DNA from: a plasmid
Direction: 5' to 3' (one strand)
Length of the DNA stretch: 64,000 nt
Sequence record: CP109674.1
Shown here piece by piece: positions 2,301 to 3,464 of the stretch. A program made the translations under genes and the position numbers. Numbering within the stretch: the first letter of the stretch is position 1; every line of letters begins with the position of its first letter. The notes under the pieces are model-generated. The model saw only the letters and a list, made by a program, of their open reading frames with translations, made no database searches and was not told where the DNA came from.

Positions 2301-2325
2301 TGTCATTTTCAGAAGACGACTGCAC
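2301..2325 (+). repeat. IRt: Tn402/class-1-integron IRt terminal inverted repeat TGTCATTTTCAGAAGACGACTGCAC, followed by an inner TniA-binding-like repeat
   Basis: Exact 25-bp IRt. The downstream sequence ggctgttgtgcagtcg resembles inner 19-bp repeats of a Tn402 end. Confidence 0.8.
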
Positions 2326-2404
2326 CAGACAACGCGGTTTGAAGGCTGTTGTGCAGTCGTCTATTGAACGAACAGTATCAGGAGTCCGCTGCACGAATGA
2401 TGAC

Positions 2405-2599
2405 CTCAAGCCGGTTCTGGTCGCGCTGGCGACCGATCAGCCCCTGGATGTGCGATACCGCGACCACGATCTTTCCGGCGATTGGGCGGGCTACCGCGAA
2501 TGCTACATCAAGCCCGACCTGCTGCTGATCTACCGCAAGTCCGACGCCGACACCCTGCGACTGGCGCGGCTTGGCTCCCATAGCGAGCTGTTCGGCTGA
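2405..2599 (+). pseudogene. YafQ/RelE-family toxin gene remnant lacking about 35 N-terminal codons
   Basis: C-terminal VRYRDHDLSGDWAGYRECYIKPDLLLIYRKSDADTLRLARLGSHSELFG matches the YafQ/RelE C-terminus. The upstream codons of ORF 2339-2599 derive from IRt-end sequence. Confidence 0.65.
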
Positions 2600-2727
2600 T
2601 GCCAGTCGCCTTGTCCGCCAAACGATCATTAGTCGGCCATGCCGGACACTGTCCAGCAAAGTTATTGCACAACGGGTTGTCGGACATTAAGATAGGCGGA
2701 CGGAATGACGGACAAGAGAGGCGGCAA
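2600..2727. promoter_or_regulatory. res: Putative res (resolution) site upstream of tnpR
   Basis: Contains TGTC/GACA dyads (GGACACTGTCC and TGTCGGACA) typical of resolvase binding subsites. Its position between a TA module and tnpR matches the Tn3-family layout. Confidence 0.4.
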
Positions 2728-3294
2728 ATGGCACTGATCGGCTATGCGCGGGTATCGACGGCGGAACAGGACACCGCCTTGCAGACGGATGCGCTACGCA
2801 AGGCAGGCTGCGAGCGCGTTTTCGAGGACACGGCTTCCGGGGCCAAGGCCGACCGCCCCGGCTTGGCTGATGCGCTGGCCTACCTGCGCGACGGCGACGT
2901 GCTGGCCGTCTGGCGGCTGGATCGGCTCGGGCGCTCTATGCCGCACCTAATCGAAACGATAGGCGCGCTGGAAGCGCGAGGCGTCGGCTTCCGTTCTCTG
3001 ACGGAAGCCATCGACACCACCACGCCAGGCGGGCGGCTCATCTTCCACGTGTTCGGCGCGCTGGGCCAGTTCGAGCGCGACTTGATCCGCGAGCGCACCA
3101 AGGCCGGGTTGACTGCCGCCGCCGCTCGTGGGAGGAAGGGCGGGCGAAAGCCGGTTGTCACCGCCGACAAGTTGCAGCGAGCGCGGGAGCACATCGCCAA
3201 CGGGCTTAATGTCCGAGAGGCCGCTACACGGCTCAAGGTGAGCAAGACGGCCCTGTACACCGCGCTGCAATCCACCAGTGCAGCCGACTCCTGA
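2728..3294 (+). CDS. tnpR: Serine recombinase / resolvase (TnpR-like)
   Basis: N-terminus MALIGYARVSTAEQD with the catalytic Ser motif, and a C-terminal HTH. Confidence 0.85.
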   Translation: MALIGYARVSTAEQDTALQTDALRKAGCERVFEDTASGAKADRPGLADALAYLRDGDVLAVWRLDRLGRSMPHLIETIGALEARGVGFRSLTEAIDTTTPGGRLIFHVFGALGQFERDLIRERTKAGLTAAAARGRKGGRKPVVTADKLQRAREHIANGLNVREAATRLKVSKTALYTALQSTSAADS

Positions 3295-3300
3295 TATTCC

Positions 3301-3325
3301 GTGCAGTCGTCTTCTGAAAATGACA
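3301..3325 (-). repeat. IRt: Second IRt copy, inverted relative to 2301-2325
   Basis: The reverse complement equals TGTCATTTTCAGAAGACGACTGCAC. Confidence 0.8.
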
Positions 3326-3439
3326 CTCACGCGCAGGTAGATGCGTGCGACTTTCATGCGGGCCTCCTGGTCATTTTGGGTATAGGGAAAATGACCATTG
3401 TTTCACGCCTAGCCAAAAAGGGAAGGTTCCCGGTTCAAA

Positions 3440-3464
3440 TGTCGTTTTCAGAAGACGGCTGCAC
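3440..3464 (+). repeat. IRi: Class 1 integron IRi (TGTCGTTTTCAGAAGACGGCTGCAC), left end of integron #1
   Basis: Exact 25-bp IRi followed by the canonical 5'-CS sequence CTGAACGTCAGAAGCCGACTGCACTATAGCAGCGGAGGGGTTGGATCC. Confidence 0.9.

Follow-up and report, generated by a model that had tools for sequence, protein, structure and literature searches.

Genes and features of the 1025-bp unit

We analysed a 64,000-nucleotide stretch of a pEC-IMPQ-like plasmid (sequence record CP109674.1; the whole stretch is called the window below). Positions 2301-3325 form a 1025-bp unit in which a truncated yafQ gene, a res-like region and an intact serine resolvase gene lie between two inverted copies of IRt, the 25-bp terminal sequence of Tn402, and a class 1 integron begins a short distance to the right. 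An earlier interpretation made from the letters alone (the sequence-only reading) had listed an exact inverted pair of 25-bp IRt sequences, a Tn402-like inner repeat after the left one, the C-terminal part of a YafQ/RelE toxin gene, a res-like region, a serine resolvase between the ends, and an integron IRi end 114 bp to the right of the unit. All the sequence features that it listed were found where it had placed them. The parts of the unit are as follows.

2301-2394, plus strand: t-type end (t-end), with the terminal 25 bp at 2301-2325, an inverted 19-mer at 2351-2369 and a direct 19-mer at 2376-2394
2398-2599, plus strand: yafQ/RelE-type toxin gene reduced to about 68 C-terminal codons, in the open reading frame (ORF) 2339-2599
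2600-2727, no strand: the element's own res region and the upstream region of the resolvase gene, with TGTCCG/CGGACA half-sites read from the sequence
2612-2639, no strand: predicted res site I, a 28-bp dyad (TGTCCGCCAAACGATCATTAGTCGGCCA) with a central AT at 2625-2626
2728-3294, plus strand: serine resolvase of 188 amino acids (WP_003159185), PF00239 match at 2e-47
3277-3325, minus strand: i-type end (i-end), two adjacent repeats, with the inner 19-mer at 3278-3296 and the terminal 25 bp at 3301-3325

Both termini have the architecture of Tn402 ends

The Tn402 IRt 25-mer (TGTCATTTTCAGAAGACGACTGCAC) was found exactly at 2301-2325 on the plus strand and at 3301-3325 on the minus strand, and the integron IRi, which differs from IRt at 2 positions, was found at 3440-3464 and 17494-17518. 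The control for this repeat search gave 0 matches in 100 shuffles. In the left end, the 25-bp terminus is followed by a 25-bp spacer, the inverted 19-mer, 6 bp and the direct 19-mer, and we found that this arrangement aligned without gaps over about 94 bp with the R751 copy of the Tn402 t-end, three of whose four repeats it matches; ISPa17 gave a gap-free alignment at its left end too. Past the first 28 bp, identity between 2301-2394 and the Tn402 t-end falls to about 74% although the layout is kept, which argues that the left end came from another member of the family and is not a copied integron end.

The right end holds an inner 19-mer at 3278-3296 that the sequence-only reading had missed. 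Over the 49 bp of 3277-3325, complementarity to the IRi end with its two repeats (3440-3488) was 84%, and the right end also aligned with the right ends of the type B and Xanthomonas copies described below. By these alignments the right end reads as IRt in its outer 25-bp sequence and as an i-end in its architecture. The stop codon and last codons of the resolvase fall within its inner 19-mer in every relative examined, including the Xanthomonas plasmid copies, so the resolvase gene is native to the element.

Tn402/Tn5053 elements produce 5-bp duplications, target res sites and carry arrayed 19-bp TniA-binding repeats. These duplications, the res targeting and the 19-bp repeats were reportedly described by Kamali-Moghaddam and Sundstrom in 2001 and by Minakhina et al. 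in 1999. In the unit, 25-bp termini of the IRi/IRt type were present, and so were arrayed 19-bp predicted TniA-binding repeats in both the t and the i layout.

The unit carries its own resolvase and res region and a toxin pseudogene

The resolvase has Ser10 within the motif YARVST and is identical to the recombinase of ISPa17; WP_003159185 is annotated also in pKJK5-type plasmids, pNY5520, pAX22 and IncU plasmids. It shares 51% identity with each of Tn402 TniR and the IncU resolvase, and 31% with IncP-1 ParA. An NCBIfam search of the resolvase found no specific model, and the generic serine-recombinase matches lay below their cut-offs. Two antisense ORFs, of 136 amino acids (2947-3357) and 148 amino acids (2880-3326), overlap the gene.

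In the res region, the dyad of predicted site I is centred on the invariant core AAACGATCATTAG at 2620-2632 and resembles a resolvase site I in size and symmetry. On the side of the gene there are more TGTCC/CGGACA half-sites; a second inverted pair occupies 2650-2687, and CGGAC repeats begin at about 2698 and about 2710. These blocks are conserved across five lineages, and the half-site pattern together with the conservation fits a site I distal to the resolvase gene and further predicted subsites toward it. The res-like character of the region is backed both by this form and by natural recombinants that switch at 2619-2632.

The toxin ORF 2339-2599 matched the Pfam YafQ_toxin profile over positions 20-88 and TIGR00053 over positions 26-91, the latter with 64.8 bits, under the cut-off of 87.25. 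When we aligned it with the intact dinJ-yafQ of plasmid pKAZ5, we found that a deletion had taken the fourth t-end repeat, the whole of dinJ and about 25 N-terminal yafQ codons. A full-length YafQ toxin with an upstream DinJ/RelB antitoxin gene is not present in the unit. Because no antitoxin gene remains, an active toxin is unlikely, and the sequence points to a pseudogene, presumably without activity. The PGAP label for 2351-2599, a complete 'YafQ family toxin', is misleading.

The unit is a probable hybrid of two relatives joined at predicted res site I

A search of the plasmid collection returned 938 matching plasmid records. The block 2156-3439 was 100% identical in many IncHI2, IncU and other plasmids, and a single match over at least 80% of its length was found in 166 records; these span Klebsiella, Enterobacter, Escherichia, Aeromonas and others, and the block adjoins integrons with carbapenemase and other resistance genes. 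Several plasmids matched exactly 2301-3325 at about 90% identity, which defines a 1032-bp element here called type B (examined in pIncFIBpQil, pIMP4-SEM1 and pFAHZU40-KPC). Many Pseudomonas, IncP-1 and Xanthomonas plasmids matched from 2612 rightward only. In pNY5520-IMP, pKJK5 and pAX22 the right-hand part belongs to ISPa17, a 2145-bp element with Tn402-like ends that is composed, in order, of a four-repeat t-end, an ORF of 178 amino acids, vapC, vapB, res, the WP_003159185 resolvase and an i-end. ISPa17 was first found on the Pseudomonas plasmid Rms149 and occurs on IncP-1 epsilon plasmids (pKJK5), pAX22, pNOR-2000 and pMOS94-like plasmids.

Pairwise comparison showed that 2301-2632 equals the type B element except for one base at 2504, and that 2612-3325 has 713 of its 714 bases in common with the ISPa17 copies of pNY5520 and pKJK5, the sole difference being at 2618. 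Since type B identity runs to 2632 and ISPa17 identity begins at 2619, the crossover lies within 2619-2632. In the five-lineage alignment, homology starts abruptly at TGTCCG (2612) and the arms assort independently around AAACGATCATTAG; the same switch point parts pKAZ5 from type B, and ISPa17 from the window element. These results indicate that the window element would be a hybrid made by the resolvase at the core of predicted res site I, with the left arm of type B and the right arm of ISPa17, and so by its sequence a hybrid relative of ISPa17 and not ISPa17 itself.

With ISPa17 the unit shares 2612-3325 (res from site I, the WP_003159185 resolvase and the two-repeat end), Tn402-like 25-bp inverted repeats, a neighbouring class 1 integron and, on the right, the same 113/114-bp spacer of IncP-1 epsilon parA' followed by IRi. 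It differs in its length and in its left 311 bp, which are unrelated except in end architecture: where ISPa17 has a left arm with a four-repeat t-end, the 178-amino-acid ORF and intact vapBC, the window element has a three-repeat t-end with exact IRt and a truncated yafQ. Type B shares the left arm, the order of yafQ remnant, res and resolvase, and the end architecture, whereas its right arm (res sites II-III, a 191-amino-acid resolvase, WP_001173919, and the i-end) is about 85-90% identical. The pKAZ5 relative, of 1566 bp, has exact IRt, a four-repeat t-end, intact dinJ-yafQ, res, resolvase and an i-end; from the switch point its right arm is 100% type B, whereas the left arm is homologous but diverged. 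The annotation of pKAZ5 shows no integron within 6 kb of the element. The published 'IS4782' (PMC10537328, 2023), with yafQ, a 188-amino-acid resolvase and 25-bp inverted repeats like those of Tn402 and ISPa17 in front of a Tn402 integron, is, judged by its description, probably the same kind of 1-kb element.

Compared with Tn402 (Tn5090)/Tn5053, the element has identical or nearly identical 25-bp termini, 19-bp repeats in the t layout (spaced, one inverted) and in the i layout (two adjacent), and a module of res and serine resolvase. Duplications of 5 bp and insertion beside resolvase genes, also typical of these transposons, were seen for ISPa17 and the composites described below. In contrast, the window element is without tniA, tniB and tniQ, its resolvase shows only 51% identity to TniR, and its cargo is a toxin-antitoxin module in place of an integron or mer operon. 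Its res has a Tn3-style multi-subsite look over about 115 bp, whereas that of Tn402 is a short tniQ-tniR intergenic site.

Several other matches were seen in the same collection. Xanthomonas plasmids made up 141 of the records, at 80-95% identity; in X. hortorum p45_OSU778, vapBC, res, resolvase and a Tn402-type end matched at about 91-94.5% and the left arm was missing. We considered whether the Xanthomonas copies are an 'empty' progenitor of Tn3 type and rejected this, as homology stops exactly at the Tn402-type terminal TGTC; they are ISPa17-type copies or remnants, and plant-associated bacteria may be a large reservoir of the ISPa17-type family. Matches of 150 bp to the t-end only (p1713-KPC and others) were likewise set aside as evidence of an ancestor, being uninformative remnants cut by a Tn3-family inverted repeat. 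In pFAHZU40-KPC (about 2700-3950), type B lies just past the integron integrase end with its t-end toward intI1, the reverse of the arrangement in the window.

The flanks of the unit derive from IncP-1 epsilon and IncU plasmids

The sequences on both sides of the unit were assigned as follows.

1336-2155, minus strand: IS26, with tnpA ORF 1388-2110 and the terminal inverted repeat tttgcaacagtgcc at 2142-2155; matches in other plasmids start at 1336
2156-2300, no strand: IncU backbone of 145 bp, identical and contiguous in the IncU plasmids pAH6, pFBAOT6 and p890054-1
3326-3357, minus strand: first 11 codons (MKVARIYLRVS) of IncP-1 epsilon parA, 100% identical to pKJK5 and cut by the ISPa17-type i-end
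3358-3439, no strand: the 82 bp that precede parA of IncP-1 epsilon and were the original res/mrs target region, with the dyad GGTCATTTT...AAAATGACC read from the sequence
3440-3488, plus strand: IRi end of the class 1 integron, 25-bp IRi and a second repeat
3642-4644, minus strand: intI1, with an 11-bp deletion after 4172 that shifts the frame

The 114-bp gap between the unit and IRi (3326-3439) was 100% identical to the IncP-1 epsilon plasmids pKJK5, pHH128 and pHH3414, and 88% identical to parA and the sequence ahead of it in pAKD25, where the gene is intact and its protein begins MKVARIYLRVSTEEQ. From 3357 down to 3326 on the minus strand it reads ATG AAA GTC GCA CGC ATC TAC CTG CGC GTG AG. 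In pKJK5, the remainder of parA lies directly past the ISPa17 t-end, and a CTCACG duplication, which we read as TCACG and one extra base, flanks ISPa17; Heuer 2012 (PMC3260659) also described both of these insertions within the 5' portion of parA, together with the 6-bp repeat. In pNY5520 and pAX22 the spacer is 113 bp, with one C fewer, leaving a clean TCACG. The integron therefore stands 82 bp upstream of parA with IRi facing the gene, which is the canonical orientation of a res hunter, and ISPa17 stands at codon 11-12, its i-end turned toward the res region. By these matches, the res region actually targeted would be the 114-bp spacer.

A similar geometry was observed at a second resolvase gene. 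In pIMP4-SEM1 (5153-5311), a type B i-end is followed by 109 bp and then by IRi, a second and independent case; the 109-bp spacer is the 5' end (MKDKSAA) and upstream region of the pAX22-type backbone resolvase gene. In pAX22 (2967-3101), the same backbone stretch runs one base (C) further and then meets the ISPa17 t-end in place of IRi. The recurrence of this i-end-to-IRi geometry suggests either that there is a hot spot or that the resolvase-res complex sets the polarity.

The integron and the unit probably moved together into an IncU plasmid

The flanking pentamers of the unit, GCCAC on the left (2296-2300) and CTCAC on the right, are not a perfect duplication, as had been remarked in the sequence-only reading, and we found that each is explained by a partner elsewhere. 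For CTCAC(G), the partner lies at the remaining half of parA in pKJK5. GCCAC pairs with GTGGC, which lies beside the integron IRt in IncU plasmids, 86 bp upstream of the ATG of the IncU resolvase gene; a match of 5 bp arises by chance once in 1024. In pFBAOT6 and p890054-1 the order is the IncU resolvase gene, 86 bp, GTGGC, an In4-type integron from IRt to IRi, the 114-bp spacer, the mini-element with its i-end first and its t-end last, GTGGC and the IncU backbone. The fragment 2156-2300 of the window is the far side of the res region upstream of this resolvase gene. Since the GCCAC/GTGGC pairing spans the whole block, the integron and the mini-element would have transposed as one unit bounded by two t-ends.

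Comparable blocks were found in other plasmids. In pNY5520-IMP, the block from IRt through the integron, IRi and the 113-bp spacer to ISPa17 is flanked by TGCAT, 92 bp upstream of the backbone resolvase gene, and in pAX22 the ISPa17 t-end stands at the equivalent place after GTGGC. With respect to the backbone resolvase gene, the composite points one way in IncU and the other way in pNY5520 and pAX22, as is to be expected of a composite with two equivalent ends. All these insertions lie beside a res that is served by a resolvase: the composites precede the resolvase gene by 86 bp in IncU and by 92 bp in pNY5520, ISPa17 is in parA codon 11-12, and the i-ends of the type B and pKAZ5 copies are 77-81 bp upstream of resolvase genes. 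Tn7 elements with two right ends transpose, and by analogy it is plausible that a composite with two t-ends is able to do so.

The IncU ancestor is a composite of the same kind as the known ISPa17-based units (Tn6394, Tn7486-7488, Tn7494 and Tn7516/7517, and ISPa17 with the defective Tn402::In70 in pAX22). It shares with them a tni-defective class 1 integron and an ISPa17-type element within one 5-bp duplication upstream of a backbone resolvase gene, and differs in having the 1-kb hybrid in place of ISPa17. No description of an IncU composite with this 1-kb hybrid was found in the searchable literature. In the window, one end of the composite remains and is cut by IS26, which interrupts the IncU sequence at 2156; the integron IRt was not found in the window, so that only one composite end survives. 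In the window, the t-end next to the IncU flank belongs to the type B arm. In pIMP4-SEM1 the same IS26 and 145-bp IncU left flank adjoins a complete type B element and a different spacer. Because that plasmid shares the junction but holds the full type B, at least one res-site exchange occurred in the IncU/IS26 context.

Two features of the IncU target region were also noted. GTGGC stands beside the inserted end both in pFBAOT6 (34125-34129) and in pAX22 (3072-3076), about 86-90 bp upstream of the resolvase start codon and in a similar context (GG.GGTGGC), so these two res regions may share ancestry and have been struck at one and the same point. The IncU fragment of the window contains a perfect 24-bp palindrome (2226-2249, ATTTTGGATTGC/GCAATCCAAAAT), 52-75 bp from the insertion point and away from the IncU resolvase gene, which may be part of the IncU res site.

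From these junctions a history in three steps can be proposed. A class 1 integron would first have entered upstream of parA on an IncP-1 epsilon plasmid and ISPa17 would have entered codon 11-12 with its i-end facing IRi, leaving the 114-bp spacer between i-end and IRi. The integron, the spacer and the mini-element, with two t-ends, would then have transposed into the res 86 bp upstream of the IncU resolvase gene with duplication of GTGGC; the empty IncU site expected under such an insertion would be ...GGGGAGGTGGCCAGCAAATCC.... Finally, IS26 would have cut out the fragment with 145 bp of IncU backbone and carried it to an IncHI2-type plasmid.

Assessment of the element and its mobility

No tniA, tniB or tniQ was found in the element, whose ORFs are the toxin remnant and the resolvase only, nor in the 64-kb window, and apart from the ends the window has no similarity to the tni region of R751. 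Because tniABQ is lacking, the element is at most a non-autonomous derivative. Its movement would need TniABQ from a resident helper of the Tn402/Tn5053 type, its resolvase and res would resolve cointegrates and incidentally shuffle the arms, and the toxin-antitoxin pair would have stabilised carriage. The unit is a complete mini-element and not a res site struck twice. The best explanation of all observations, taken as one joint claim, is that 2301-3325 is a non-autonomous member of the Tn402/Tn5053 family, in the ISPa17 group, made into a hybrid by its resolvase, dependent on a helper and moved with the integron as a composite; we consider this claim likely. In the window the element is an immobile relic, a footprint of the passage of the integron from IncP-1 epsilon to IncU and, by IS26 capture, to an IncHI2-type plasmid.

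Several points weigh against this explanation. The fourth t-end repeat, present in Tn402, ISPa17 and pKAZ5, is absent from the window element. No solo target duplication was found around the 1-kb unit in the window (GCCAC versus CTCAC), in pIncFIBpQil or in pKAZ5; swapping at res would erase such duplications, and solo mobility of the 1-kb form is at most putative. Helper-dependent transposition is deduced from the sequence, and the window holds no helper gene. The resolvase could not be assigned as a TniR orthologue, as its 51% identity to TniR equals that to the ordinary IncU plasmid resolvase. The division of 2600-2727 into subsites is a prediction from the sequence, and a promoter scan of 2156-3500 found no match to the sigma-70 consensus. 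At the IncU site, type B may have come first and been swapped later, or the hybrid may have arrived ready-made. Moreover, published papers credit mobility to an 'ISPa17 transposase' (PMC6409357, PMC9952335, PMC10311859, PMC10537328).

These papers call ISPa17 an insertion sequence with two putative transposases, and on that model the unit would be an autonomous insertion sequence that moves itself and adjacent integrons by its own 'transposase', either the serine recombinase or a small ORF. Serine recombinases are indeed transposases in the IS607 family, and the NCBIfam IS607 model gave a weak match at 1e-4, far under its cut-off. However, the sole intact gene here is a 188-amino-acid resolvase-type recombinase beside a multi-site res, which is the arrangement for cointegrate resolution. 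It is established that IS607-type transposition gives neither inverted repeats nor 5-bp duplications, whereas Tn402-type ends and 5 bp are seen here. The 178-amino-acid ISPa17 ORF annotated as 'transposase' had no Pfam or NCBIfam family match and is absent from the 1-kb forms, which still carry the t-end used in the IncU insertion. The 'short transposase' of IS4782 is, we would guess, a spurious antisense ORF like the 136- and 148-amino-acid ones overlapping the resolvase gene here. An autonomous insertion sequence is thus improbable in our judgement.

The sequence-only reading had preferred another model, in which a Tn3-family or plasmid resolution module, with toxin-antitoxin genes, res and resolvase, was struck twice in its res by Tn402-type elements, so that 2301-2325 and 3301-3325 would be orphan IRt remnants. 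Toxin-antitoxin genes beside res and tnpR are, as is established, typical of Tn3-family transposons; Tn402-type elements seek out res sites; no target duplication surrounds the unit by itself; and similar vapBC-res-resolvase modules occur on many Xanthomonas plasmids. Yet both termini face inward with inner-repeat arrays of the complementary t and i types, the resolvase stop codon lies inside the right-end inner repeat in every lineage, and the internal res at 2600-2727 is unbroken and the element's own. Neither Tn3-type terminal repeats of about 38 bp nor a DDE tnpA was found in or beside the unit, whose flanks are IS26/IncU on the left and IncP-1 parA'/IRi on the right, and none of the 938 matching records holds 2326-3300 contiguously without the terminal repeats. 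Its suggestion that Tn402-like ends had targeted a res held in part: the integron did enter a res region, but that region was the 114-bp spacer and not the internal res. The alternative that it had also offered, an IRt-IRt mini-element, was borne out, as the identical two ends recur at about 90% identity in the unrelated contexts of pIncFIBpQil, pIMP4-SEM1 and pFAHZU40-KPC, and it is further backed by the 1566-bp full-length form in pKAZ5 and by the 2145-bp ISPa17. The IRt-like repeats are genuine Tn402-type termini and not internal resolvase sites of a known transposon. We regard a res struck twice as very unlikely.

Least credible of all is that the exact IRt pair is a rearranged integron end like the inverted partial IRt copies around IS6100 seen in the In4-type integrons of pFBAOT6 and p890054-1, because, although the 25-bp sequences are identical to IRt, the left end keeps the Tn402 layout at about 74% identity past 28 bp, the right end has the i-end layout, 2301-2440 and 3266-3325 are not identical to the tniA-proximal sequence of Tn402 over their full length, and a relative without an annotated integron nearby exists in pKAZ5.

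The passages of PMC6409357 on ISPa17, citing Di Pilato 2014 for pAX22, note that its 25-bp inverted repeats resemble IRi/IRt and propose en bloc movement with an adjacent defective Tn402 integron; further ISPa17-based units were reported in PMC9952335 (Tn7516/7517) and PMC10311859 (Tn6394 and Tn7486-7488, with the pNY5520 unit as Tn7488). Thus ISPa17, ISPa17-based units and the yafQ/resolvase 'IS4782' are already published, the hybrid member is new, and the gain is incremental. Beyond the published accounts found, our analysis adds the t/i architecture of the ends, the case for helper dependence, the hybrid origin at res site I, the identification of the 114-bp spacer in this context and the GTGGC partner of the flanking pentamer.

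A broader proposal, which we offer tentatively and hold to be possible but somewhat less than an even bet, is that ISPa17-type mini-elements are dedicated parasites and rescuers of the Tn402 system, combining end donation, arm reshuffling and resolvase-set polarity. By landing beside a tni-defective integron at a res, such an element would donate a second t-end, and the two-t-end composite would be movable by helper TniABQ. The opposite composite orientations in IncU and in pNY5520/pAX22 would reflect its two equivalent ends, and its own resolvase would reshuffle arms at res site I, giving hybrids such as the window element. That an i-end faces IRi across a spacer of about 110 bp at two resolvase genes, IncP-1 epsilon parA and the pAX22-type backbone gene, would mean that polarity follows the resolvase-res complex and not gene direction.

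These results correct the usual annotation of 'YafQ toxin' and 'recombinase': the locus is a Tn402-family mini-element with a toxin pseudogene, and the so-called transposases are not transposases. The flanks preserve in sequence the footprints of earlier hosts, namely IncP-1 epsilon, IncU and the IS26 capture, and the truncation of the IncU fragment by IS26 explains how the block reached an IncHI2-type plasmid. The block can serve as a lineage marker for the movement of class 1 integrons from environmental broad-host-range plasmids to clinical IncHI2 plasmids, and it supports the idea that tni-less integrons are still movable through an end borrowed from a neighbouring mini-element.

Observations on the adjoining integron

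The intI1 gene of the window lacks 11 bp (ATCGAAATCCA) relative to that of pFBAOT6 and is split into the ORFs 3642-4286 and 4006-4644, while at the same place in pEC-IMP an intact intI1 of 1014 bp is annotated. Two further substitutions, at 4550 and 4555, appear on inspection by eye to lie in the cassette promoter Pc and to give a PcW TGN-10 variant. A second IRi end with its second repeat was found at 17494-17542, marking the 5' end of a second class 1 integron in the window, and the records that match this region contain mcr-9.1, two ISCR1 copies and several sul1 copies.

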